Source: a virus (taxonomy: Duplodnaviria > Caudoviricetes). From it: a stretch of DNA of 61,768 nt. The stretch is taken from IMG/VR virus record IMGVR_UViG_3300033388_002585, positions 1 through 61,768 of that record, one strand, 5' to 3'. Below, piece after piece: positions 18,083-54,002 of this stretch. The position numbers and the translations under genes are program-made. The stretch's first letter is position 1, and every line of letters begins with the position of its first letter. The notes under the pieces are model-generated. The model had not been told where the DNA came from, did not search any database, and was given only the letters and a program-made list of their open reading frames with translations.

Positions 18083-20530
18083 ATGCCTCAAAAACAAAGT
18101 ATTCAGAAACAGCATTCAGTTAATTTTTCTTACAAGTACGCACCCACGTTACAAGCATTCAATGAGTGTAAGAAGCGGATCAGGGCGGTTATAGGGCCGT
18201 TCGGCTCAGGAAAATCATCTGCAATGGTTATGGAGTTGTTCCAGGCTGGATGTAATCAGCTTCCCGATTCACATAACGTTCGCAGGTCTCGCTGGCTTGT
18301 GGTTCGTAATGTATATCGCCAATTAACAGACACCACTATCCCTACCTTTTTTGATTGGTTTCCCCCGTATTACTTTGGTTCATATAATAAAACAGAACAT
18401 CGGTATAACATGTCCATGCCTCTTTCTGATGGTACGGTATTAGACATGGAGGTATTGTTTCGAGCGCTGGATAAAGAAGAGCACGTATCGAATCTTTTGT
18501 CGCTTGAAGTATCCGGGGCATGGCTTAACGAATACCGGGAAATCCCCAAGATAATCTTTGACGCGATTGATGGTCGTATTGGTCGGTATCCTCCCCGCCG
18601 TGAAGTGGGCTGCACCTATCCTTTCACAATTATGGATTCTAACCCTCCTGACCATGAACACTGGTCGTATAAATTGTTTGAAGAAGAAAGAATGAATGAT
18701 GTGGCCCTTTATGAGAAGTATCAGATATTCCATCAGCCTTCTGGTTTATCTAATGAAGCTGAGAATTTACCTTATCTTCCAGAAGGATATTATGAAAACC
18801 TGGCTGCTGGAAAGACTCCTGATTTTGTTCGTGTGTATGTAGATGGTCAGTATGGTTATGTTCGCAGTGGCAAGCCTGTCTACCAAAACTACTCCGATGT
18901 ATTACATTTAGCCTTAAAACCTTTGTCTCCCGTAAAATCAGTTCCGATAATAATTGGTATGGACTTTGCGCTTAATCCGGCGGCTGCTTTTACCCAATTT
19001 ACTCCATCTGGAAACTTTAATGTATTGAGAGAGATTACAGGCGAGGGAATGCCTTTGCGTACTTTTGTAACTGAATTATTAATGCCTATAGTTCATGCGT
19101 ATTACCGTGGGTTCCGTATTATAATTATAGGAGATCCCAGTGGAGTTAAGAGAGCGGATACAGATGGTAGAACATGCTTCCAGGAGTTAATTGATTCAGG
19201 ATTTCATGCGATTCCAGCTAAGACTAACGCAATCCAGGCCAGGTTCGCTGCCATAGATTCTCTCCTTACCAGGATTCAAGGGGGCAAGGCAGTATTTCAG
19301 CTTGATCCCTCTTGTACTATGCTGCGGAAAGGATTTCTGGGTGAATACAAGTTCCCGGAGATTCATTCACGGCATGGATTGATGTATGCGGAGAAGCCTC
19401 TTAAGAACGAATTTTCTCACTGTTTCACAAAAGATACGTTAATAAGATTAGTTGACGGACAAAAAAGAATAAAAGACGTGATAGTCGGGGATATAGTTAA
19501 AACCCCATGGGGAAACAGGAAAGTGTTAAAGGCATGGATGACAAGAAGTAACGCAGAAATAATGGAAATAAACTTATCGGATGGTAGAAAAATTAAGTGT
19601 ACTCCTGATCATAAATTTATTTTAGCTAACAAAAGTGTTGCGTATTGCAGGTCATTGCAGTATAAGGATGTTTTATGTGATTATCATTTAAATTTAAAGG
19701 AGATAGAGACATGGAACATCCAAAGTTTATTGAATTTAAAGGAAAGAAATACAGATTATCCGACGGGGGATATTACAGGGTTGAAAACTGGGGAAAAGCC
19801 ACATGTAATTTACACAGGGCTGTTTGGGAAGATTATACTGGGAATAAAGTTCCTGAAGGATACGTTGTCCACCATATTGATAAAAATGTTTTTAATAACG
19901 ATATCACCAATCTTGAGATTATGCCCAACGGGAAACACGCATCAATGCACACCAGAGAAAGACTTGCCCATGATCCTGAATCATTTCAGCGAGCAATTAA
20001 AATTGCAAGAGAAGCTGCGAAAAAATGGCATGGATCTCCAGCCGGAATTGAGTTTCACAAAAAGCTTGGAAAGCAGGTATGGATCGGTAAAAAGAAGTAT
20101 ATTAAGATTTGTGAAGTATGTGGAGAGGAGTATTCAACGTATTTCCCAACGAGAAGCAAATGGTGTTCTCCTAAATGTCAACAAAAAGCAAGAAGGTTGC
20201 GGGGGGATGACAATGTGGAAAGAATATGTTCTGAATGTGGTGAATCGTTTATTACCAATAAATATAGTGCAACAAAAACCTGCTCTTCACGTTGTGGCGG
20301 TAAACTTGCTGCAAGAAACAGAAGATGTGTATAATATAACAGTAGATGTTGATCATGTATATTTCGCTAATGATGTTCTTGTCTTTAATTGTCATGATGC
20401 TTTACAATATGCCGGGTTAGGTTACGAGGTTATGGATCAGGCTAAAGGCTTAACGGATCTCACAGGAACAATAGTAACACGAAAAAGAGAAGGTGTTGAA
20501 AAAAAGAGAGTGATGGCTGCGTATACATAA
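18083..20530 (+). CDS. terL: Terminase large subunit with intein
   Basis: Walker A GPFGSGKS, Walker B AWLNE, DSNPP, RNase H-like IGMDF and HDALQY. Confidence 0.95.
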   Translation: MPQKQSIQKQHSVNFSYKYAPTLQAFNECKKRIRAVIGPFGSGKSSAMVMELFQAGCNQLPDSHNVRRSRWLVVRNVYRQLTDTTIPTFFDWFPPYYFGSYNKTEHRYNMSMPLSDGTVLDMEVLFRALDKEEHVSNLLSLEVSGAWLNEYREIPKIIFDAIDGRIGRYPPRREVGCTYPFTIMDSNPPDHEHWSYKLFEEERMNDVALYEKYQIFHQPSGLSNEAENLPYLPEGYYENLAAGKTPDFVRVYVDGQYGYVRSGKPVYQNYSDVLHLALKPLSPVKSVPIIIGMDFALNPAAAFTQFTPSGNFNVLREITGEGMPLRTFVTELLMPIVHAYYRGFRIIIIGDPSGVKRADTDGRTCFQELIDSGFHAIPAKTNAIQARFAAIDSLLTRIQGGKAVFQLDPSCTMLRKGFLGEYKFPEIHSRHGLMYAEKPLKNEFSHCFTKDTLIRLVDGQKRIKDVIVGDIVKTPWGNRKVLKAWMTRSNAEIMEINLSDGRKIKCTPDHKFILANKSVAYCRSLQYKDVLCDYHLNLKEIETWNIQSLLNLKERNTDYPTGDITGLKTGEKPHVIYTGLFGKIILGIKFLKDTLSTILIKMFLITISPILRLCPTGNTHQCTPEKDLPMILNHFSEQLKLQEKLRKNGMDLQPELSFTKSLESRYGSVKRSILRFVKYVERSIQRISQREANGVLLNVNKKQEGCGGMTMWKEYVLNVVNRLLPINIVQQKPALHVVAVNLLQETEDVYNITVDVDHVYFANDVLVFNCHDALQYAGLGYEVMDQAKGLTDLTGTIVTRKREGVEKKRVMAAYT
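19421..20389 (+). mobile_element. Intein in TerL nuclease domain (about 323 aa)
   Basis: SH|CFTKDTLI, block B KCTPDHKF, block F DVYNITV, end LVFN|C. Confidence 0.9.
19711..20334 (+). CDS. HNH homing endonuclease nested out of frame in the TerL intein
   Basis: AAGGAG RBS; LHRAVWE, VHHIDKNVFNNDITNLE...H; two CxxC...CS..C Zn modules. Confidence 0.85.
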   Translation: MEHPKFIEFKGKKYRLSDGGYYRVENWGKATCNLHRAVWEDYTGNKVPEGYVVHHIDKNVFNNDITNLEIMPNGKHASMHTRERLAHDPESFQRAIKIAREAAKKWHGSPAGIEFHKKLGKQVWIGKKKYIKICEVCGEEYSTYFPTRSKWCSPKCQQKARRLRGDDNVERICSECGESFITNKYSATKTCSSRCGGKLAARNRRCV

Positions 20531-20672: not shown

Positions 20673-23600
20673 ATGTTGATAAATGTGCAGACTAATGAAC
20701 AGATAGAGAAAGAAAAGAAAATAGAAACCAAGGCTGTTGATGTTGCCGAGAGTGCTGAACTGATAACCAGTCTTTCCGCGTATGTTGATACATGCTGGAG
20801 TGAAGCTAAAGCAGAAAAAATAGAATTCGAAAAGCAGCTTTTAATCAATAAACGGCAAATAGATGGTATATATGATCCTGATAAACTTGCTGCCATAAAA
20901 GAATTTGGATCATCAGAAATATTTGTTTTTATCACAGATACCAAGTGTCGTAATGCGGATGCGTGGGTAAAAGATATCTTATTCCCTCCCAATGAAAAAT
21001 GTTGGGGTATCCGCCCAACTCCACAGGCGGAAATTCCTTCCAACATTCGTGGAAAAATCCTTGAAACTGTTGCTCGGGATGTATTGCAGGGTGCTATGAA
21101 TAATGCTTCTCAAGGTCAGCCTTCCGATCCACTCCAAATTTATAAATCCATTATGTCCAAGATGCCTGAGATAGAAGAACACCTTAAAACGTTTATTCAG
21201 AAAAAGGCTAAAGAGATTGCCGCACAGATGGAGGTTAAGATTAACGATCAGTTGACTGAAGGTGACTGGTATGATGCTGTATTGGGTGTTTTGCCGGATG
21301 TTATAATGGGTACGGGCTTCGTGAAGGGTCCTATATTAAGAAAGCAGAGGGCTAAAAAGGTTGAGGTAGACCCTGAATCAAGTAAGTTTAGTGTGAAGAT
21401 TATGGAAAAAGCAATCCCCAAGTATGAGATTCGGCCTCCGTTTAATATTTATCCATGTCCGGGAAGTACGGGTATCAACGATGGCTATTTGTTTGATCGG
21501 ATTCAAATAACGCCACGGGGGTTACAGGAACTTATAGGGATTCCGGGGTTTGATGAAAAAGAGATTAGATTAGTGTTACAGGAATATGAACAGGGAAGTT
21601 TGCACGACTGGCTTAATCTGGAGATTGATCGTAACCTCAAGGCTATGGATAAGATTGTTACCGGGAGTGTGAATGTATCTTACAATTCTCACAAGATAGA
21701 TTGTTTGGAGTTTTGGGATGCCATACAGGGCAAGAAGTTAAAGGAATGGGGTGTTACAAAGAAAGATATGACTTTCGATGATGATCTTTTTTATGATTTG
21801 TGTGTATGGAAAATAGGCGGACATATTATCAAAGTAATGTTTAACCCTGATAAATTGGGGATGAAACCTTTTTCTAAAGCATCGTTTGAAGAAAAGTCAG
21901 GAAGCTTCTGGGGGCGCGGTTTACCTCAAGTAATAAAAGATGCTCAGCAGGCTGCTAACGCATGTGGTCGAGCCATTATAAATAATGTTGCGATAGGCAG
22001 TGGACCCCAAGTAGAAAGAAACATTGACAGAGTACCGCGTTCAGATATAGCCGATAATATTTTGTACCCATGGCGAGTATGGGATGTAACTAACCAGCAG
22101 GCAATATCCAATGCTCCCGCTCTCAAGTTTTATCAACCCCCTATGGTAGTAGATAAGATTCTCACAGTTTTTGATCGATTTATAAAGATAGCTGATGAAC
22201 ATTCTGGGGTGCCTGCGTATGCTCATGGAGATGTAAGGGTAGGAGGAGCTGGTCGTGCTCTTGCTGATTATGAGAAAGTTTTAACGCCTCAAGGTCCTGT
22301 ATGTATAAGTCAACTTAAAGCAGGTGATTTGGTCGTTAATTCATACGGGTCTGCTTCTACAGTAACAGGAGTATACCCACAAGGTGAATCTGATATCTTC
22401 CGCTTAAAATTTAATAACGGTAAGCATGTTGATTGTGATATGGAGCATCGCTGGTCAGTAAGGACACATCATAATCGTAAATTTAGAACTATGACGACTG
22501 AGGAAATTCTGGATGCGGGGTTATTTAGAAAAACAAAGAAAGATTACAGGAATCCGAGTGGCTGGCGGGCTAAGTGGATGTTACCGTTATTTGATTATAT
22601 AGAGTTTGAAGAAAGGGAAGTAAAGATTGATCCGTATACAATGGGTGCTTTAATAGGAAATGGAGATGCTCGGTGCAGGCTTACGTGTCGAGATAAAGAA
22701 GTTTTCGAGAGGATTCCGTATCCATTAGGAAAAGTTGATCGCAAAGGAGATAGTGCTGCATGGACGCATACGGTTAAAGGAATTAAGTTGGATTATTTGT
22801 CGTATGGATTAAAGTGTAAGTCTGTTGATAAATTTATTCCTGAAGATTACTTATTTAATTCAAGACAGATACGATTGGAGTTGCTTCGAGGCTTAATGGA
22901 TACTGATGGTTGTTGTTCGAAGGAAGGTGGAACTGATTATTCTTCGTCGTCGTTCAGGTTAATTAATGATTTTAGAATACTGGTTGAATCTCTTGGCGCA
23001 ACGGTAGGAAGTATAGGCGAATGTGAGGGTGGCGAATTTGAAGTTAATGGTAGGAAAAGTGTCAGACAAAAGGCATATAGAATTAAATTTAACCTTCCTG
23101 GAGAAAAATTGTTTTACGTTCCAAGAAAGCATAAGAGGGTATTTGATCGGAAGAAAACCCACACATACATAACAGGAATTGAATATATCGGGAAACATAC
23201 AGCAACGTGTATTACCGTGGATTCCCGAGATAGCTTGTTTCTTTGTGCTAATTTAATACCCACGCATAATACAGCCTCAGGGCTCTCCATGTTGATGCAT
23301 GGAGCGGCGAGAGGCATTAAATCTCTTATCAAGACTATCGATGAAAAAATCATATCTTCCACAGTAGAACGTCAGTATTACTGGAATATTGAACAGAAAG
23401 AAAACTTCGGGCTTATATGTGATTTTCAGATTGAGGCTCGGGGAAGTGCTGCTATGCTGGCTAAAGAACAGCAGTTAACCCGGATGGTAGAATTCGCGCA
23501 GGCAACTGCTAATGAATATGATATGAAACTAATGGGAGCTGCTGGGCGGGCTTATATAATAAGTGAGATAGCAAAGCAATTCGGGTTAGATGTTGATAAG

Positions 23601-23795
23601 GCTTTCCCGATGCTTGATGCGATTATGAGGCAAGCTGAGCAACGGGAATTAGGGAGTGAAAGTGGAGTAGAAGGCAGAGGAGAGGAGAGTGCTGGTGCTA
23701 TGGGAGGTCAGGGACCGGCAGCGAGAACTCTTGACATGGCTGGAAATCCTGCTCAGGGTACTGATATGAATGAGTTTTCAGCAGATAGAGGATAA
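20673..23795 (+). CDS. Portal protein with intein
   Basis: Follows terL; GTGFVK, FWGRGLP, SGVP...TASGLSML portal-like motifs. Confidence 0.85.
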   Translation: MLINVQTNEQIEKEKKIETKAVDVAESAELITSLSAYVDTCWSEAKAEKIEFEKQLLINKRQIDGIYDPDKLAAIKEFGSSEIFVFITDTKCRNADAWVKDILFPPNEKCWGIRPTPQAEIPSNIRGKILETVARDVLQGAMNNASQGQPSDPLQIYKSIMSKMPEIEEHLKTFIQKKAKEIAAQMEVKINDQLTEGDWYDAVLGVLPDVIMGTGFVKGPILRKQRAKKVEVDPESSKFSVKIMEKAIPKYEIRPPFNIYPCPGSTGINDGYLFDRIQITPRGLQELIGIPGFDEKEIRLVLQEYEQGSLHDWLNLEIDRNLKAMDKIVTGSVNVSYNSHKIDCLEFWDAIQGKKLKEWGVTKKDMTFDDDLFYDLCVWKIGGHIIKVMFNPDKLGMKPFSKASFEEKSGSFWGRGLPQVIKDAQQAANACGRAIINNVAIGSGPQVERNIDRVPRSDIADNILYPWRVWDVTNQQAISNAPALKFYQPPMVVDKILTVFDRFIKIADEHSGVPAYAHGDVRVGGAGRALADYEKVLTPQGPVCISQLKAGDLVVNSYGSASTVTGVYPQGESDIFRLKFNNGKHVDCDMEHRWSVRTHHNRKFRTMTTEEILDAGLFRKTKKDYRNPSGWRAKWMLPLFDYIEFEEREVKIDPYTMGALIGNGDARCRLTCRDKEVFERIPYPLGKVDRKGDSAAWTHTVKGIKLDYLSYGLKCKSVDKFIPEDYLFNSRQIRLELLRGLMDTDGCCSKEGGTDYSSSSFRLINDFRILVESLGATVGSIGECEGGEFEVNGRKSVRQKAYRIKFNLPGEKLFYVPRKHKRVFDRKKTHTYITGIEYIGKHTATCITVDSRDSLFLCANLIPTHNTASGLSMLMHGAARGIKSLIKTIDEKIISSTVERQYYWNIEQKENFGLICDFQIEARGSAAMLAKEQQLTRMVEFAQATANEYDMKLMGAAGRAYIISEIAKQFGLDVDKAFPMLDAIMRQAEQRELGSESGVEGRGEESAGAMGGQGPAARTLDMAGNPAQGTDMNEFSADRG
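22257..23270 (+). mobile_element. Class 3-type intein with LAGLIDADG endonuclease in the portal (about 338 aa)
   Basis: Ala1 (ALADYEKV), block B EHRW, block F TCITV, PTHN|T; MGALIGNG and LRGLMDTDG motifs. Confidence 0.88.
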
Positions 23796-45911: not shown

Positions 45912-48900
45912 ATGAACATGGATAAATTTGGATTTTCCGAACCTTTTGACCAGGAACAGCCTAACTACAATCCACCTGCCTCTGATGATCCTTTTGGTTT
46001 CTCTGAGCCTGAAGATGATTTGTCTCTTCCTATGACTTCTACTCGAGAACCTCGTGAGCCTCATGGAGTAACTCGTAGCTTTGGTGATGATTATACTCCT
46101 CCAGATGATTATACTTCTCCAATGGGTGCAATACCCATGGGTGAAGAAGGTAAATATGGCTGGGGTTTCTCGGATGAGGATCAACAAGCTGATAAATTCG
46201 GGGACAGGTTTGGATTTTCTGAGCCTGAAGCCATACCTGCGAGCGCCATACCTGTAGCCAAAAAACCCTCTTTTTTTGAGCATATAAAACAACTTCCCTC
46301 GGACATTATGGGTGGTTTAATCGATTATACTGAAATGGTTCCGCGTGAATTGCGTGCATTGCCTGGTGGCCCCAAAGCTGGCCAAGATAAAGAAGGCTTA
46401 ATGGGTCGTATGGTTACCGGGATTGAAAAATACAAAGAAACTCACCCTCAATATAAAATGCCGGAGAGCAAAGGTATATGGGGAGCAATTCATGGTGGCC
46501 TTAGAGCTGCTGCTACATCTATGGCTGCTGGTCTTCCGGGTATGGCTGCCGGGGCTGCTACTGGCGCTGCTTTGGGTGGTGGTGTTTTCTCTCCGGTTAC
46601 TGCGTTTATTGGCGGTGTCCTTGGATACGCTACCAGTGGAGCATTACAATTTGGGTTAAGTCAATATGATTCAGCCATGGAGGAAGCCCTTGATGCTGGT
46701 AAATCAATGAAACAAGCTGAATCTTATGCGTTAAAAACCTCTATATATGAAGGTGTGTTTGAGTTCGGTGCAGACCTTCTCGAAGGCGCTACGTTCAAGT
46801 TAGGTAGCATTTTTACAGCCCCCGTTAAGAATATAGTCAAAGCATCGTTGAGAGACTTATTTACCCACAATCTCAAGAATGCGGTTAAGCGTACAGCCAT
46901 GATAGCAGCTATCGAGACCCCTTCAGAAATGTTAACGGGGGGAATGCAGGCCGAGGCTGCTCATGATATAAATCTGGGCGACATGAGATTCTGGGATGCG
47001 GCTAAACAAGCTTTCGGACCTGCATTTGTGGCTTCTCTTATTTTCGGTGGAATAGGTGCTGCTGGAGTGTATAAGTATAAGAAAGGAGTCAAAGCTGCGT
47101 TAACTGATCCAAGCAAATCCTTTGAAGAACGCATGACGGCGATTAAAACTATATCAGAAGTCATTAAACCATATTCACCTGAAGCTGCCAATGCGTGGGA
47201 CATTGTAGGCTTTGATGCTGTAGCTCAGAATAAACCCATAGACCTCGATATGAAGTTTGATAGAGAAAGCGATCAAGACTACAAGGTAGCAGAGGAAAAA
47301 TTGAGACAAACTCGGCTACAACTTAATGTGCCAGAACAAAAAGTTACCAAGGAACAAAGGCAGGAATTTATAAATGAAGACTTTAAGGGTAAGACCCCTG
47401 TGGCAAAAGAAGACACCCAGCAGTTTATTGCAGTTGGTGGTCCTGCTGGAGCGGGGAAATCCACATCTATCGACAATATAATGAAGGATAATAAGCTGGA
47501 TATCGATACTTTTGTCATTATTAATCCTGATGCATACAAGGAGCGAGCTGGATATACCGGAGATCGGGCAACATTATTCCACGCAGAAAGTTCTCAGATG
47601 GCAAGAGAAGCTTTAAAACGAGCTGTGGATCAGGGATATAACGTGTTATATGATAGCCAGATGAGAAATTTTGATGTTGTCAGCGATGCTGCTGATACTG
47701 TTATTAATAATGGTGGGAATGTTGGTATAAGTTTTACTGATACTGATTATGTAACCTCTCGCGCCAATACTGAAATACGGAGAGTCAGTGGCAGGGAAGA
47801 CAGATATGTTCCTGATACCGCGATAGTTAATGGAATTAACGGAGGAGTTCCAACGCTCATTGAATTGGTAAGGAAATATGTTGACAATCCTGCTGTGATG
47901 TTTAACATTGAGTCTAATAACGTAGAGTTTGGAAATCCTGTTCCCATTGTTGTTAATGACAGGATTGTAAATCAAGAAATGCTTCATAGGCTCATGTCGA
48001 CTCCCTATGATTCGATACTAACACCGGAAGGAGGAATAAAATATGAAAGGTCCATTACTGGCGGACGAATTAATACGGAGACTATCCAACAAGCCTCAGA
48101 GGAGGTTGAAAGTAGGGTCAATGCTCGGAGAGTTGTCAAAGGCACTAAGGAAAGTCGCGCAGTCGGAAAACTCCTTGCAAGAAGAACAACCGATACCCTC
48201 GAAGACTACGTTGCCAAGATAATTGATGAAAAGCATGGCGGTATATTTGTATCTCCGAATGTAGCTGAACCGGTTGAAGGTGAATCGCGGGTAGATAGCC
48301 TTGAGAAAGCATTAAAGTATATCAAATCCACGGGGCAAGCTTCATTTGCTTCTATCATGAAGGATATAGGTAAGCGTGTAGATGTTACCGTTAAGACTTT
48401 TCCAGCTCTTGGGACATGGGGGCAAACAGTAGAGAATTCTTTATTCGCTGTTATCCCCCATGTAAATAGCTTTGATAAGCTTCGATACATGGCGGCTGCT
48501 CAAGGATTAATCGGAAGACAAAAGGCTGTCATTGCCTTCATGATGGATCGTGACGGAGATCAAAGATTGTATGAGGTAGATACTGGCAGCACAGATATAC
48601 GTGAAGTTCACGCTACATTTGATGAAATAGGCATAGAAAGCCATACCTTTGCGCTTAACAATGATGGAACTGTGAAGGCATTGGTATATGATTATGCTGG
48701 AACTGAAATAGAAAACATACAGGAGGTAGGGAAACGTTATGGCAAAGAAATTAAAATCCACAAAGGGCAAGGCGAATATCTCGCGTCCCCCGAAGAAACA
48801 AGACCCCAAAGTGCAAAGTTTTTCAGAGAGATTACAGATCGCTATGAAGAAGAATCCGAATATGGTTTGGGCCGATTCAGAAAATGGGAAAGGACTGCTC

Positions 48901-51900
48901 ATATAAGTCCACCTATTCTTCCTGTTAGCTTAAACAATAACGTGCGATATCTTAAGACAACTCCGGGTGAAGGTGAAATTCCGCCTATGTATCAGTTTTG
49001 TGATGTGTCTTCTGGCATGGGGTTTTCTATTCCTTATATGCTGAAGGGTAAGGAATTAAATAAAGCGATCAAGGATGAGCTGGATAAGATTAACGAGAAG
49101 GTTGATAAAATATCAGTAACGGCATTTGATTTGAAGCCTAAAATATCTCCTCCCACTCCCGCATTCAAGGCATGGTTCGGTGATTCAAAGATAGGAACCC
49201 CCAACAACCCCGAGATGCTATTCCACGGGACCTTCGAAACCTTTGATACATTCATCTGGGGTGACTTGGGCTTCCATTTTGGTACTGCTGAACAGGCGAT
49301 GGATCGGATACGGGGAAAACGCCAAAACCTTCCCGCAAATACATGGGAAGAAATGGTAAACCGCAAGGATACCTATATGCCTGTGTATCTGAAGATGGAA
49401 AATCCCCTTGAAATGGATGACTGTAATTGGGACGACTTCTCGCGGGTGTATGAAGAAGTCCGGGATGTCTTAAGGCGAAAGGGTGAGTTTTTTACTGAGG
49501 CTGATGCTGATTTATTGTACAATATATTTTATCGTGGTTCTACTGCTGGTAAAAACGCCATGCAGTCGAGCGATGTAAAGGTTAAGAATGAGGCCGAGAC
49601 CGAGGGGCTAAACGCTCTCCGCCAGGCTCTCCAAAACATAGGATACGATGGGATCAAGTATATTAATAGGTACGAGGGATACCGGGAGACTGGCGTAAAA
49701 AATATCCCTGAATTCCTAAAACACAAAACAAGACCAGATTACTCATACATAGTCTTCGACGCCAATCAAGTGAAGTCTGTATACAATCACGGTTCATTCT
49801 CTGATTCCAAGAACATATACCTTCAAGTTCAGCATAAGAGCGAACAGGAAATATTAAACCGTATGCGTGCTGGTGAGTTGAACCCTTCCGAAACTTTAAC
49901 AGCATATCTCCGCGGGATAGAAGAAACCAACCATATATACAAAACCATGCAGAGTTGTTTTAATCGTGTGCTTGATAAGGAAACTCGGGATCGTGTTACC
50001 CTTGAACTACAAGACGTTATAAATCTTTCTGATACGACCATTAATGTAGGTCGCAGCTTACAGGATCATGGCATAACTGAAGCTGAATTAAAGGACTATG
50101 ATATCGCCGGTCTCACCTCTATATCTATGCCTAACCTTGGTGCGTCAATTCAAATAGCCTACGATACAAACGCTGGAATAGTTGCCAAAACCACATACCA
50201 TGAATGCTTTCATCTAACCTCAGCGTGGTTACTTCCTGAGAATGATCGAAACTTCTTGTTAAGAACATACGGAAATGAAGAAGCAACGGCTGATGCATTT
50301 GCCGCATATGCTCGGTCTCATCCTGATTTTAAAGCTCCTAACTCACGTATAGAGGCAATATTCAGAACACTCAAGCGATACCTTGATTACGTTTACCATT
50401 ACTTACAAGGTCACGGATTCAACAGACCGGAAGATATATTTGGGACCATATTAACTCATGGATACCGCATGCAGCCTGACTCTATTATCAAAGCACGTAT
50501 GCTTGAGAATCTTGATACGGCCTTAGATATTAAAGCTACGCAGACAATTAATGACAGGGAATGGATAGAATCCCCCGAGAGTGCAGCATCCAAACCTCCT
50601 CTCGATGATGATCTATCTCCACGTATATTCTACAACGGTATTCAGAAAGGGTTCGGCTCTATGCCTGATCACTATATGTTTATTGATAAGCTTGTTTCTG
50701 GCTCTACTTTTCTTGTTCCAATGGTTAGCGGACAAGAAGTAAACAATCTGATACGCAAGAAGTTGGAATCATTAAGTAAACAAGCAGCTACCTTCACCAA
50801 ACCTGACATTAATAAGATACTGGATACGATACACAAGACTACCGGGAAATTAAGTATATCGAAAAAAGAAGAACAAAACAGGTTGCAGGCAGAAACTGAT
50901 GCGGCGAGAGTTAAGAGAGCAAACCAGGATACCCCTATCGTTGCATTGGATGGGACTCCCTATAAAACAAAATCTGCTGCTATGTTAGCTCGATCAAACC
51001 TCACAAAACAATACGGTCACGACTACGATGTTATAGAGCATCAAGGTGGATATGCACTACAACGTGTTGTGGATTACCAGGACCCCATTTCAAAAGATGC
51101 TGCGATAAGAGAGGCTGCGAGAACCCAAGACAAGATTAACATAGCTACGGGAGTCCAGAAGATTGGTCAGCTTATAGTAGAAGGCGAAACATTAGATATC
51201 GCTATGGCCAAAGCTGAAAAAGAATCCGCTCATGCTGAAAAGATAGGTAAAGCAGAGGGTAAGGAGGTTGAAAAAGAGAAGACCAAAAAGGCCAAGGAAA
51301 AGGCTAAAATCAAAAAGGCTGCGCTAAAAGAGATCCGGGACATGATTGACGATTTGAAAAAGGCTGGAAAAAAGGTTGATAGAATGCCTCGGAATCAGGC
51401 TAAAGCTGTACGTGAATTGTTAGCCGATATTGATCTCAAGAAACCTACAAAGAAAACGTTGAGCAGACTAAACAACACCAGGAAATTCTTAGAGGATAAT
51501 CCGGAATATTCAACCATGCCTCCTCATGTCATTGAGGAATTACGGAGACTTGAGTTAAAGGCTTTCAGGGACTTGGATATAGATGATATGAGGCTGATCC
51601 ATGACGCTATATTACACCACATTCACTTAGCCTCAACCATAAACAGGATAAAAGTAAACCAGAAGAATCGAACTTTTACTGAAACCGTATCAGACATACT
51701 TGGATCACTGAAACCATCTAAAGAAATACATAGCGAACTAATGGCGCAAACTGAAAAGCCTACCCCATACAAAAACTTATGGGATTCAATAACTTACCTG
51801 TTTGGGCTGGCTCAAGAACATTATGATTTTATTATCGAAAAGGTTGCTGGAATTAACAGCACTTTTCATTATGTTTTTTACAAGGATGTTAAAAGAGGCG

Positions 51901-54002
51901 ATGATAAACGAGTCGAGCATGAGTATGCGACATGGGATTTATTAAAGCAACGCCTCAAGGAAAATGGTTTTGATCCAGCAAAAGTGGGTGGTGATGTAAG
52001 CGCATGGATGAATGAGAGAATAACCACAGCAGGGTTTGAATTAACTCGTGGACATCGTATGGCCTTATATCGTCATTGGTTAAATGCGGACAACCATAGG
52101 TCTCTCACAGATATAGCAGGAGGTTTCACTCTTCCAACCAATAAAGACCCTAACAAGATATACAATATGACGGAAGGTCAACTTGAAGAAATTATTGGAG
52201 ATTTAAGCGAGCAGGAAAGGATATTTGCTGGTGATGCTGTTACTAAATTGTTTGAGGAACAGGGCAAGGCTATGGCCGAGGTATTCTATAAACTAAACGG
52301 ATATGAATTAAAACTCGTTGACTATTATTACCCCAAACAAGTTGCTCCCCTTGCCCGTGGACTGGATATTTCTCAAGAAGAAGCTCGGAAGGAATTTGAA
52401 AGGAAATATTTAAGAGTAGGTGTACCAAAGGGAATGACCAAAGAACGCCAAGGAGTAATAGTTCCCATAAAACTTAACTCGTTACCATATGATATCAACA
52501 AGAGTGTAATGCAGGCCTCAGCGTATATCAATTTGGAAATCCCCATATCCAATGCCGCGAGAATACTGTTTGACAAAGGAAAGGTAGATAAGAAGACAAA
52601 TAAACGTACGCTGGGATTCAGACAGGAATTCATAAACAGATACGGGGAAAAAATGTTCAAGGAAATAGAAAAGGGTCTCCGTGATATCTCGGGTGAATGG
52701 GAAAGTTATACCATAGTTGAAGAAGGGTTAATGAAAATGAAGAACCACTTGTCAACTGCAATCCTGGGACTCAATCCGTTTGTTATGTTAAAGCAGCTTA
52801 TGTCCTTCCCTTTATATCTTCCTTACGTTAACTTTAACCATTTATCTCAAGGGTTAATGGACGCCATAGTGAACCCCACACAAACTAACAATGAGATTAA
52901 AGTGTTTTCTCCTGAATACCGCCGCCGAGTTGAGGGTGGATTTAGTCGTGATGTTATGGATATCTTCAAGACAGGTATGGTTAAGCAGATGTACGGGGGT
53001 AAGGCTTCAATCCCTGAACGAGTTATGGGCGGCATTAAGATGTTCGATCAAGCGGCTGTTATGTCTGGAATGAGAGGAGCGAGAAACCAGGTATTGGCAG
53101 AATTTGAACAGGGTAAGTTAAGCAAAGAAGTGAAGGAAGGGTTGGATCTAACCGATGCTGATATCCCCAACCTCACACCCGAAGAAAAAATGAAGTATGC
53201 TTATGAGTACGGAGATTATGTTACCGAGCGATCACAGCCCATGTTTTCTCCTGAACATCGTTCAGCTTTATCTCGTGGAGGTCCCTGGGTTCAGCTATTC
53301 ACCATGTTTGGTTCCTTCACTAACCAAGCCTATAACCTCATCCGTCGAAGTGTAGCTGAATGTTCTCGAACAGGAAGCAAGGAATCGTACAGTAAGCTGG
53401 CTAAAGTTTTGTTCCTGCTCCTTGTTGTTAATACTCTCGGAATCATGGCGATTGATTGGCTTCGTGATGAACTATACCAGCGTAAGAAACAATACCGGAG
53501 ATCATTATGGCGTGGTGTTCTCGATAACTGGGCCGGATACATGTTCTTCGTCCGTGACCTTGAAAAAGCTATATCGAGTAAGATTGAGAAAGGTCCGTGG
53601 TATGGATACGATGTCAGCTTACCCATAAATAAAGTACCTGAATTATTTGTAGGTGCAGTGAGCAGCGGCGTGGGTGCGTTAATAGATAAATCTGCTGGGC
53701 AGAGAAAAAAGAAGGCGTTAAGATTTGTGGATGACTCTCTATCCCTCTGGGCAATGAGTAAGGGAATCCCATACCAGACCCCCAAGAACCTGGTGCAGTC
53801 TGGCTACAAGGGATTCAAAAAAATTGAACGTCGTAAAAAGATGCAGGATATTCTTAGAGGTAAACGGAAACAAGTAGCTCCAACGGATAAGTCCGGGTTC
53901 TCTGAACCAGTCTTTATGGAATCTCAGCAACCAGCACAGCGACAACCAGCGCGGGGAACACCAGAAACAGAAGACAGGTTCGGGTTCTCTGAGCCACGGT
54001 AA
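45912..54002 (+). CDS. Giant polyvalent ejection protein (zeta-like P-loop kinase, SAM-lyase-like, ART-like, HExxH peptidase)
   Basis: GGPAGAGKST/INPDAYK/FHAESS; GTW...ENS...QKAV; FKAWFG/FHGT/GFHFG/VYL...NPL/GYDGI/YIVF...QVKS; HECFH; large helical C-terminus. Confidence 0.85.
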   Translation: MNMDKFGFSEPFDQEQPNYNPPASDDPFGFSEPEDDLSLPMTSTREPREPHGVTRSFGDDYTPPDDYTSPMGAIPMGEEGKYGWGFSDEDQQADKFGDRFGFSEPEAIPASAIPVAKKPSFFEHIKQLPSDIMGGLIDYTEMVPRELRALPGGPKAGQDKEGLMGRMVTGIEKYKETHPQYKMPESKGIWGAIHGGLRAAATSMAAGLPGMAAGAATGAALGGGVFSPVTAFIGGVLGYATSGALQFGLSQYDSAMEEALDAGKSMKQAESYALKTSIYEGVFEFGADLLEGATFKLGSIFTAPVKNIVKASLRDLFTHNLKNAVKRTAMIAAIETPSEMLTGGMQAEAAHDINLGDMRFWDAAKQAFGPAFVASLIFGGIGAAGVYKYKKGVKAALTDPSKSFEERMTAIKTISEVIKPYSPEAANAWDIVGFDAVAQNKPIDLDMKFDRESDQDYKVAEEKLRQTRLQLNVPEQKVTKEQRQEFINEDFKGKTPVAKEDTQQFIAVGGPAGAGKSTSIDNIMKDNKLDIDTFVIINPDAYKERAGYTGDRATLFHAESSQMAREALKRAVDQGYNVLYDSQMRNFDVVSDAADTVINNGGNVGISFTDTDYVTSRANTEIRRVSGREDRYVPDTAIVNGINGGVPTLIELVRKYVDNPAVMFNIESNNVEFGNPVPIVVNDRIVNQEMLHRLMSTPYDSILTPEGGIKYERSITGGRINTETIQQASEEVESRVNARRVVKGTKESRAVGKLLARRTTDTLEDYVAKIIDEKHGGIFVSPNVAEPVEGESRVDSLEKALKYIKSTGQASFASIMKDIGKRVDVTVKTFPALGTWGQTVENSLFAVIPHVNSFDKLRYMAAAQGLIGRQKAVIAFMMDRDGDQRLYEVDTGSTDIREVHATFDEIGIESHTFALNNDGTVKALVYDYAGTEIENIQEVGKRYGKEIKIHKGQGEYLASPEETRPQSAKFFREITDRYEEESEYGLGRFRKWERTAHISPPILPVSLNNNVRYLKTTPGEGEIPPMYQFCDVSSGMGFSIPYMLKGKELNKAIKDELDKINEKVDKISVTAFDLKPKISPPTPAFKAWFGDSKIGTPNNPEMLFHGTFETFDTFIWGDLGFHFGTAEQAMDRIRGKRQNLPANTWEEMVNRKDTYMPVYLKMENPLEMDDCNWDDFSRVYEEVRDVLRRKGEFFTEADADLLYNIFYRGSTAGKNAMQSSDVKVKNEAETEGLNALRQALQNIGYDGIKYINRYEGYRETGVKNIPEFLKHKTRPDYSYIVFDANQVKSVYNHGSFSDSKNIYLQVQHKSEQEILNRMRAGELNPSETLTAYLRGIEETNHIYKTMQSCFNRVLDKETRDRVTLELQDVINLSDTTINVGRSLQDHGITEAELKDYDIAGLTSISMPNLGASIQIAYDTNAGIVAKTTYHECFHLTSAWLLPENDRNFLLRTYGNEEATADAFAAYARSHPDFKAPNSRIEAIFRTLKRYLDYVYHYLQGHGFNRPEDIFGTILTHGYRMQPDSIIKARMLENLDTALDIKATQTINDREWIESPESAASKPPLDDDLSPRIFYNGIQKGFGSMPDHYMFIDKLVSGSTFLVPMVSGQEVNNLIRKKLESLSKQAATFTKPDINKILDTIHKTTGKLSISKKEEQNRLQAETDAARVKRANQDTPIVALDGTPYKTKSAAMLARSNLTKQYGHDYDVIEHQGGYALQRVVDYQDPISKDAAIREAARTQDKINIATGVQKIGQLIVEGETLDIAMAKAEKESAHAEKIGKAEGKEVEKEKTKKAKEKAKIKKAALKEIRDMIDDLKKAGKKVDRMPRNQAKAVRELLADIDLKKPTKKTLSRLNNTRKFLEDNPEYSTMPPHVIEELRRLELKAFRDLDIDDMRLIHDAILHHIHLASTINRIKVNQKNRTFTETVSDILGSLKPSKEIHSELMAQTEKPTPYKNLWDSITYLFGLAQEHYDFIIEKVAGINSTFHYVFYKDVKRGDDKRVEHEYATWDLLKQRLKENGFDPAKVGGDVSAWMNERITTAGFELTRGHRMALYRHWLNADNHRSLTDIAGGFTLPTNKDPNKIYNMTEGQLEEIIGDLSEQERIFAGDAVTKLFEEQGKAMAEVFYKLNGYELKLVDYYYPKQVAPLARGLDISQEEARKEFERKYLRVGVPKGMTKERQGVIVPIKLNSLPYDINKSVMQASAYINLEIPISNAARILFDKGKVDKKTNKRTLGFRQEFINRYGEKMFKEIEKGLRDISGEWESYTIVEEGLMKMKNHLSTAILGLNPFVMLKQLMSFPLYLPYVNFNHLSQGLMDAIVNPTQTNNEIKVFSPEYRRRVEGGFSRDVMDIFKTGMVKQMYGGKASIPERVMGGIKMFDQAAVMSGMRGARNQVLAEFEQGKLSKEVKEGLDLTDADIPNLTPEEKMKYAYEYGDYVTERSQPMFSPEHRSALSRGGPWVQLFTMFGSFTNQAYNLIRRSVAECSRTGSKESYSKLAKVLFLLLVVNTLGIMAIDWLRDELYQRKKQYRRSLWRGVLDNWAGYMFFVRDLEKAISSKIEKGPWYGYDVSLPINKVPELFVGAVSSGVGALIDKSAGQRKKKALRFVDDSLSLWAMSKGIPYQTPKNLVQSGYKGFKKIERRKKMQDILRGKRKQVAPTDKSGFSEPVFMESQQPAQRQPARGTPETEDRFGFSEPR
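48043..48222 (+). CDS. Nested +1-frame ORF A (59 aa), candidate antidote
   Basis: AGGAGG at 48029-48034, 8-nt spacer, ATG; MKGPLLADELIRRLSNKPQRRLKVGSMLGELSKALRKVAQ... Confidence 0.55.
   Translation: MKGPLLADELIRRLSNKPQRRLKVGSMLGELSKALRKVAQSENSLQEEQPIPSKTTLPR
48739..48906 (+). CDS. Nested +1-frame ORF B (55 aa), candidate antidote
   Basis: AGGAGGT at 48721-48727, 11-nt spacer, ATG; MAKKLKSTKGKANISRPPKKQDPKVQSFSERLQIAMKKNPNMVWAD... Confidence 0.5.
   Translation: MAKKLKSTKGKANISRPPKKQDPKVQSFSERLQIAMKKNPNMVWADSENGKGLLI

Follow-up and report, generated by a model that had tools for sequence, protein, structure and literature searches.

The virus record IMGVR_UViG_3300033388_002585 (Duplodnaviria; Caudoviricetes) is a complete record of 61,768 bp with direct terminal repeats, and its whole length is the window considered here. 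It contains a giant gene, hereafter the host gene, which joins several unrelated enzymatic domains in one phage polypeptide and is thereby a polyvalent protein. Inside the host gene, in the +1 frame, lies a short open reading frame (ORF) with its own Shine-Dalgarno-like sequence, termed ORF B, over the end of a conserved domain that we call domain X. ORF B is probably the local copy of a conserved, unannotated family of overlapping small genes that is tied to domain X, which occurs in polyvalent or virion-associated proteins of phages. The features of the locus that bear on this proposal are the following.

45912..54002, plus strand: host gene (polyvalent protein), a single ORF of 2696 codons, from the ORF list and its translation
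48234..48896, plus strand: domain X, host amino acids 775–995, a conserved alpha/beta domain without a Pfam family, with ferredoxin-like units
48721–48727, plus strand: Shine-Dalgarno-like AGGAGGT, read from the sequence and built from the host codons CAG GAG GTA (Q-E-V)
48739..48906, plus strand: ORF B, nested +1-frame ORF of 55 codons plus TAA, from the ORF list, with a homologous +1 ORF in relatives
48853..48903, plus strand: C-terminal motif region of the ORF B product (NPNMVWADSENGKGLLI), from alignments A3 and A6

The AGGAGGT is separated from the ATG (48739–48741) by 11 nt (48728–48738), and the Shine-Dalgarno sequences of the window's genes are of the AGGAGG type. In the host frame, the start of ORF B reads TAT (48738–48740, Tyr943) and then GGC, and the ATG consists of the AT of the tyrosine codon and the G of the glycine codon; because it is read as TAT-G, ORF B is in the +1 frame. 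A first-pass annotation of the sequence had reported the AGGAGGT, the spacer, the ATG from TAT-G and the 55-codon +1 ORF, and every detail agrees with the sequence. It had also placed ORF B over the end of a domain, which is borne out by an AlphaFold2 (AF2) model: ORF B overprints host residues 943–998 (model residues 169–224), the final strand-helix-helix of domain X. Its description of the location as a domain boundary does not hold if a linker is meant, because the host residues under ORF B are structured and conserved.

An exhaustive HMMER search with host residues 691–1100 returned 577 representative proteins at E ≤ 1e-3. All 577 matches cover query positions ~85–305, equivalent to host residues ~775–995, and many of the proteins are stand-alone forms of 210–350 amino acids. 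Pfam recognised no family in eight of eight stand-alone domain-X proteins, nor over domain X in three longer ones, and host residues 775–995 gave no Pfam, PHROG-function or PDB sequence match. The consensus of domain X (alignment A1) is F.SPN...IGDW.DGAENS...QKAV..F...G.GEF.G..TR..A..Y..I..YE. The AF2 model, built with 30 sequences, has a predicted local distance difference test score (pLDDT) of 89.1 and a predicted template modelling score of 0.84, and consists of beta-alpha-beta-beta-alpha-beta units followed by two helices. Within it, the stretch under ORF B forms a strand pair (pLDDT ~97), a long helix and a weaker final helix.

The collections hold no close relative of the window. A blastn search with 47500–49500 against 50,697 phage records gave 0 matches; a single-protein scan of viral contigs gave 15 pattern matches, of which 0 were confirmed; and the long proteins recovered were one near-identical protein and two relatives at 26–29% identity, with none other. 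The near-identical protein, encoded on another contig, is 100% identical over residues 690–1090, which shows that the host protein is unchanged there and nothing more. The nested frame was therefore tested across loci encoding domain X. Alignment A1 was too diverse for the locus scan, and the narrower A2 was used. The patterns used to pick loci lay in the N-terminal half of domain X, which kept the choice blind to its C-terminal end; 63 viral loci were taken first, followed by a replication set of 5 genome and 80 metagenome loci. In each locus the position homologous to Tyr943, referred to as the anchor, was placed by hmmalign, and 106 loci, the window included, remained after removal of duplicates. 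In the null model, each codon is resampled from the synonymous usage of its own ORF while the host protein is kept fixed.

No stop interrupts the 55-codon +1 stretch homologous to ORF B in 83 of the 106 loci, against 42.5 expected. The calibration of the null on 37,543 other stretches of the same ORFs gave 0.190 open, compared with 0.170 expected. The excess is seen in the first locus set (46/50 open, 20.9 expected) as well as in the replication set (37/56 open, 21.8 expected), and it persists when the loci are collapsed into 31 clusters at 50% identity (21.3 open, 10.8 expected, z 4.9). In 57 of the 106 loci, the anchor or the codon after it gives rise to an ATG, and 54 of these 57 have at least 55 open codons, where 25.8 would be expected; loci without an anchor ATG are open in 29 of 49 cases (16.7 expected). 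Where the anchor is a Tyr or His codon, T is its last base in 30 of 40 loci (16.3 predicted by the codon usage of each ORF), and phages with 60–69% GC are among those with such T-ending codons. Stops close the +2 frame in 57 of 61 loci, and the nested stop falls 55–81 codons past the anchor in nearly all open loci. At the Shine-Dalgarno site, the relatives carry AAGG(C/T), which comes from host K-A or K-G. As judged by this comparison, the +1 frame appears to be kept open and a start codon with a putative ribosome-binding site to be conserved, as would be expected of an overlapping gene.

Synonymous sites of the host frame were also informative. For each locus, the GC content at host third codon positions (GC3) was divided by an expectation taken from identical residues in the remainder of the ORF. 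In the 41 loci that combine the ATG, the open frame and a GC content of at least 0.52, this ratio drops to 0.80 (z −16.8) across the nested ORF. Further upstream in the domain it is 1.005, and the 8 loci whose +1 frame is closed give 0.92. The dip is weak in the first 30 nested codons, deepest (0.59–0.63) at 10–40 codons before the nested stop, and no longer present 10 codons past it. In the dip stretch, the GC content of host position 3 is 0.48–0.58, down from ~0.80 on both flanks; that of host position 1, which is the third position of the nested frame, is 0.67–0.74 and lies above it. In 27 high-GC loci, host third bases are A or T in 85–96% of cases (19–34% expected) precisely at the columns that encode nested F/Y, I/L or F, and at expectation at those for nested P, R, S or G, although the A/T third bases at nested F/Y and I/L are inseparable from a plain A/T preference.

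Codon conservation follows the same pattern. In pairs of at most 35% identity, a shared residue is encoded by a shared codon at 1.144 times the expected frequency within the overlap and at 1.005 times upstream. In 23 closer pairs, host-synonymous differences amount to 0.474 in the overlap and 0.664 upstream, with equal non-synonymous rates. These comparisons show that constraint on synonymous sites of the host frame coincides with the nested ORF in relatives.

The ORF B product is a predicted basic peptide that begins with MAKKLKST and ends with AMKKNPNMVWADSENGKGLLI, with no Cys and no hydrophobic segment. The +1 peptides of the family begin with M-[AT]-[QK]-x-S and continue with ~40 residues of high S, T, P, A and K content, in which a recurrent 'NSS' is the shadow of the host G.GEF.G motif. 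The last ~25 residues are better conserved, for example ..L..NPRFK....SGKG[FY]VI.GAKP or ..VD.TS...G.G..I.G..P, and the family motif for the C-terminus of ORF B is NP.F......SGKG[FY].I.G..P. The strongest synonymous constraint on the host frame in relatives overlies this C-terminal motif region. The window product fits the family pattern and ends ~7 residues early, directly after G-K-G-L-L-I. A profile search of a protein database returned two matches only, apparently accidental calls of the same nested frame on short contigs. A likeness of the nested C-terminus to HicA or to an AbrB-type hairpin was considered, found no support from any tool and was dropped.

The nested ORF is spread over phages of 36–69% GC whose host domains share only ~30% identity. 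The full ORF state is found in 54 of 105 loci, scattered over most of a tree built from the more upstream portion of domain X. It is absent from a divergent clade of 10, several sub-clades appear to have lost it, and a low-GC clade of 5 with the ORF adjoins a clade of 6 with mostly closed frames. The domain X of the window forms a long branch (1.53). In a scan of 49 of the 105 host ORFs, domain X and its nested ORF were seen to follow portal or MuF modules, and the other neighbours are Zeta toxin, ADP-ribosyltransferase of polyvalent proteins (ART-PolyVal), ADP-ribosyl exotoxin-like, Acb1, DUF7178, kinase, phosphatase and protease domains. The first-pass annotation had suggested a modular unit of an effector domain plus a nested partner. 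The idea of a module is supported, in that a +1 ORF at the same position, with similar length and C-terminal motif, accompanies domain X in distant phages whatever the flanking domains; the roles of effector and partner are conjectural.

Domain X often lies directly downstream of a portal (Phage_portal_3, Portal_Mu, Phage_portal) or MuF module within one ORF, and this adjacency would fit delivery with the virion. In one locus (L044), domain X adjoins the Acb1 domain, which acts against the cyclic oligonucleotide-based anti-phage signalling system (CBASS). In a metagenome locus (L080; host ORF 1147–2127), a host stop lies 27 codons past the anchor, in the conserved C-terminal helix of domain X. 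The host frame reads on past this stop, and the nested +1 ORF (2048–2227, 59 codons, full motif) is intact; the stop is a single case and may be an assembly error.

Within the window, chance was assessed by counting out-of-frame ATG codons with AGGAGG 5–13 nt upstream and at least 50 open codons. The host gene contains two such ORFs, ORF B and a second, upstream one.

48043..48222, plus strand: ORF A, +1-frame ORF of 59 codons, ATG from TAT-G at 48043, with AGGAGG at 48029–48034 and an 8-nt spacer

A comparison with codon-shuffled versions of the gene had been proposed in the first-pass annotation. In synonymous shuffles of the host gene that keep the amino acids (n=2000), the mean is 0.038 qualifying ORFs per gene, with P(≥1) of 0.0375 and P(≥2) of 0.0005; in codon permutations of the host gene, it is 0.0105. 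The two qualifying ORFs exceed this null, under criteria fixed post hoc, and the shuffle P values are optimistic because those criteria were set after the ORFs had been seen. Across all 78 greedy-picked ORFs of the window, 2 qualify where 0.12 would be expected, and none of 300 shuffles contains as many as 2. ORF A passes the shuffle test jointly with ORF B. The host sequence under it, which separates the Zeta domain from domain X, is poorly conserved, and host residues 640–790, which contain it, have no significant homologue among 148 fetched loci (best E 0.058). The earlier suggestion that the same architecture occurs twice in the gene therefore draws all its evidence from the shuffle test. 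The evidence of the window by itself is suggestive, that is, moderate and short of compelling.

Several results weigh against ORF B being a gene. The long spacer, about which the first-pass annotation had cautioned, is indeed unusual: a Shine-Dalgarno core of at least 5 nt precedes 32 of the 78 ORFs, with a spacer of 6–9 nt in 24 and of 12 nt or more in only 3, and the 11–12 nt of ORF B exceed the spacers of 29 of these 32 ORFs of the same phage. When the spacer is restricted to 5–10 nt, ORF A alone qualifies in the shuffle test. The window's own ORF B is only mildly unlikely under the ORF-wide null (P 0.115) and unremarkable under a null of local codon permutation (P 0.53). Across the loci, the latter null reduces the excess of open frames to 77 against 55.2 expected of 95 loci, and 22 of 105 loci are without the nested ORF. 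A Shine-Dalgarno-like 4-mer, 11–12 nt from the ATG, is present in 35 of 49 relatives, a modest excess over the 25.7 dictated by the host residues. As a direct measure of selection on the nested protein, the ratio of non-synonymous/non-synonymous to non-synonymous/synonymous divergence (dNN/dNS) gives no signal in the 23 pairs, at 0.78 (0.67–0.89) in the overlap and 0.81 (0.76–0.88) in the upstream control. The BLOSUM similarity of alternative-frame peptides is raised in the +1 frame (z 7.4) but more so in the +2 frame (14.2) and is not frame-specific; this excess shows synonymous constraint without indicating the frame. The 11 low-GC loci that bear the ORF, the window among them, have no composition signal (137 vs 130.7, z 0.7), and the A/T third bases of the high-GC loci would also come from a conserved cluster of rare codons. 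Finally, the nested peptides match no family, structure or annotated protein in Pfam (nothing below E 0.01 in 37 members), in PDB sequences (0 matches) or in the protein database, and the AF2 model of the window peptide with 37 relatives is poor (pLDDT 65.9), with one helix (residues 28–38).

The alternative that survives best, unlikely as we consider it, is that there is no gene at all. ORF B would then be a by-product of the hydrophilic end of the domain, its Shine-Dalgarno sequence and ATG would be supplied by host residues (Q-E-V, K-A, Y-G), and the nested motif shared among relatives would be the shadow of a conserved host motif, W..VRD.W. Only a host codon of the form xTA or xTG can give rise to a +1 stop; this hydrophilic end, in which D, E, R, Q and G abound, has few codons with T at position 2, so that its +1 frame would seldom meet a stop. 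The origin of part of the Shine-Dalgarno-like signal in host residues (25.7 of 49 expected by resampling), the first G of the nested motif, which is forced by a host Trp, the window-only P values (0.115 to 0.53) and the absence of a dNN/dNS signal all agree with such a by-product. Yet the excess of open frames persists with the host protein fixed (83 against 42.5), the anchors end in T beyond expectation (30/40 against 16.3), GC3 falls to 0.80 of expectation, and A or T occupies specific third bases in 85–96% of cases where 19–34% would be expected. Moreover, the host motif W..[VIL]R[DN] is present in 27 of 57 open high-GC loci and in 1 of 22 closed ones, which looks as though the host motif were conditional on the nested frame and not the other way round.

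Quite improbably, the constraint could be real and non-coding, consisting of a cluster of rare codons (A/T-ending in high-GC hosts) or another nucleotide signal, with the open +1 frame incidental; a translational pause that lets domain X fold before the next domain emerges would be one example. The GC3 dip does sit at the end of a folded domain, the similarity of alternative-frame peptides is up in +1 and +2 alike, and 9 loci with a closed +1 frame show a weaker dip (0.78–0.80) at +40 to +59 codons. However, codons ending in A or T should raise the number of +1 stops (xTA followed by A or G), and stops are depleted. Such a signal would also leave unexplained the conserved ATG and the recovery of GC3 just past the nested stop. 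The dip is larger where the ATG and the open frame are present (0.80 vs 0.92), and the third bases switch from one position to the next between A/T and G/C, following the nested residues N-P-R-F-K and G-K-G-F/Y-x-I. A conserved RNA element is likewise unsupported: RNAalifold, run on 28 diverse sequences of the most constrained stretch, gave 0 pairs and no consensus structure on an admittedly imperfect alignment.

The least probable alternative is that the family gene is real and the window copy a decaying remnant, perhaps no longer expressed or needed: the window ORF ends ~7 residues before the usual ..G..P tail, has the 11–12 nt spacer, sits on the long domain X branch (1.53) and lacks a composition signal, but its AGGAGGT has full strength, its ATG sits precisely at the homologous codon, the open frame and the NP...GKG..I core are retained, and the near-identical protein elsewhere is 100% identical over residues 690–1090, though this shows only an unchanged host protein.

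We favour a real overlapping gene because stops are depleted, the start is conserved and the synonymous constraint ends at the nested stop, all with the host protein fixed and with replication on a second set of loci. If ORF B is such a gene, ribosomes would initiate internally on the giant mRNA at the Shine-Dalgarno-like sequence and ATG, and the product would be a basic protein of ~55–75 amino acids. Its first two thirds may be a low-complexity by-product of the host frame, and the last ~25 residues (a helix, then a G-K-G-aromatic-x-aliphatic strand) would be the part under selection. Recombination would be unable to separate domain X from the small protein, because the same bases encode both, and the two would spread as a single module. 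The most likely role of the nested protein, which is a guess, would be that of a partner of domain X (a regulator, chaperone or antidote in the producing cell); this role is favoured because the arrangement makes the two inseparable. A broader proposition, possible but doubtful at present, is that domain modules of injected polyvalent proteins can carry a partner gene in a second frame, of which ORF B and domain X would be a widespread and ancient example.

The first-pass annotation had labelled domain X 'SAM-lyase-like', after enzymes that cleave S-adenosylmethionine (SAM), and the label is plausible but unproven. In a search of 48,161 chains, the best structural match of the modelled domain is a phage SAM lyase (6zm9_A, Z 8.1, root-mean-square deviation 2.4 Å), aligned over 99 of 129 residues at 18% identity. 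Two more SAM-cleaving enzymes are in the top 15, namely 7ock_L (Z 5.9) and the SAM-AMP lyase 9gab_D (Z 5.8), and Foldseek assigned 6znb a probability of 0.99 (E 0.022). On the other side, best Z values of 7–8 are typical in this tool of models without a true match, so that 8.1 is scarcely above background, and Pfam is blank. Structures of phage SAM lyases include Svi3-3 (PDB 6zm9/6znb) and T3 SAMase (PDB 7ock chain L) (PMC7877911). They provide the nearest solved fold to the predicted domain X, which is about twice as long (~220 amino acids, with two ferredoxin-like units and C-terminal helices) and has no match to them at the sequence level.

The remaining recognisable domains of the host gene flank ORF A and domain X.

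47403..47849, plus strand: Zeta-toxin-like P-loop kinase domain, host amino acids 498–646 (Pfam PF06414, Zeta_toxin, E 3e-16)
49209..49787, plus strand: ART-PolyVal, host amino acids 1100–1292 (Pfam PF18760, E 5.1e-07)

ART-PolyVal is the first recognisable domain downstream of domain X. Its Pfam score of 31.0 bits is slightly below the cut-off of 31.2, and the region is also matched by phrog_21376 (amino acids 1084–1315). Further, phrog_28077 matches host residues 1726–2576 (E 4.3e-43), and the C-terminal ~850 host residues match giant phage proteins without assigned function in PHROGs. A short motif, [DR]-[KR]-F-G-F-S-E-P, is repeated at both ends of the giant protein (window positions 45912–46300 and 53900–54002), with four copies near the N-terminus and further copies within the final 60 residues.

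Polyvalent proteins of phages and conjugative elements, with 131 domains, have been described by Iyer et al. (2017; PMC5512222). The host gene resembles them in joining a Zeta-like kinase and ART-PolyVal in one giant protein. In its relatives, domain X is fused to portal or MuF modules, an arrangement that this paper describes for injected proteins. It differs in the second reading frame, which is absent from the concept as set out in that main text, where 'overlapping' and 'frameshift' have 0 uses. Our literature search, which included the main text of that paper, returned no description of a second frame in polyvalent genes.

Other nested or inserted elements are present elsewhere in the window. 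The ORF of the terminase large subunit (815 amino acids; 18083–20530, plus strand) contains an intein (Pfam Intein_splicing, amino acids 471–769). Inside the intein stretch lies a 207-codon ORF in the +2 frame (19711–20334, plus strand; AAAGGAG, 8 nt, ATG) that encodes an HNH endonuclease (phrog_15471, E 3.7e-37; HNH_3, E 3.6e-12), and the terminase frame is open across the same 624 nt. This intein-nested ORF resembles the 'hidden HNH' that is reported for a phage methylase insertion element (PMC11855218). A 1040-amino-acid portal/adaptor-like ORF (20673–23795, plus strand) matches phrog_332 and, weakly, SU10_portal. Its amino acids ~526–873 match terminase, helicase and primase PHROGs, with LAGLIDADG_3 at amino acids 734–776, and are probably a second intein with a homing endonuclease.

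Known nested phage genes offer the closest parallels to ORF B. In phage lambda, Rz1 lies inside Rz in the +1 frame, and in phiX174, genes B, K and E lie inside A, C and D. The product of Rz1, a gene nested in that of the inner-membrane spanin, is the outer-membrane lipoprotein subunit of the spanin and carries a signal peptide as well as a lipobox Cys. As in these cases, ORF B would be a short gene, equipped with a separate ribosome-binding site and start, that lies wholly inside a larger gene of the same strand, in another frame, with one mRNA for both products and with the nested gene overlooked by gene finders. Unlike Rz1, the predicted ORF B product has no Cys or hydrophobic stretch, and the host gene is not a spanin gene. 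ORF B also differs from the lambda and phiX174 examples in being tied to one domain of a mosaic protein and moving with it between unrelated architectures; our literature search found no description of a nested gene that travels with one domain in this way.

Overprinted, de novo viral genes have been reviewed (PMC8227390; PMC3494269). The predicted ORF B product shares with them its short, basic, low-complexity and mostly disordered character, and the better-conserved nested part similarly lies over a less constrained end of the older frame. Most documented cases are confined to one virus lineage, whereas the ORF B family extends across phages of 36–69% GC.

If ORF B and its relatives are translated, annotation pipelines systematically overlook a widespread family of small proteins, and the unit of exchange in polyvalent counter-defence proteins would be a domain together with an inseparable partner. 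Synonymous recoding or domain swapping in phage engineering would then silently destroy a second gene. Phage nested genes are known mostly as oddities of single lineages, and here a hidden frame follows one domain through different giant proteins. ORF B is also a concrete, testable case for overprinting as a means of locking functionally linked proteins together. Should the domain-plus-partner reading prove true, the small protein would control, escort or neutralise its domain in the producing cell, and polyvalent genes would be compressed operons and not single genes.

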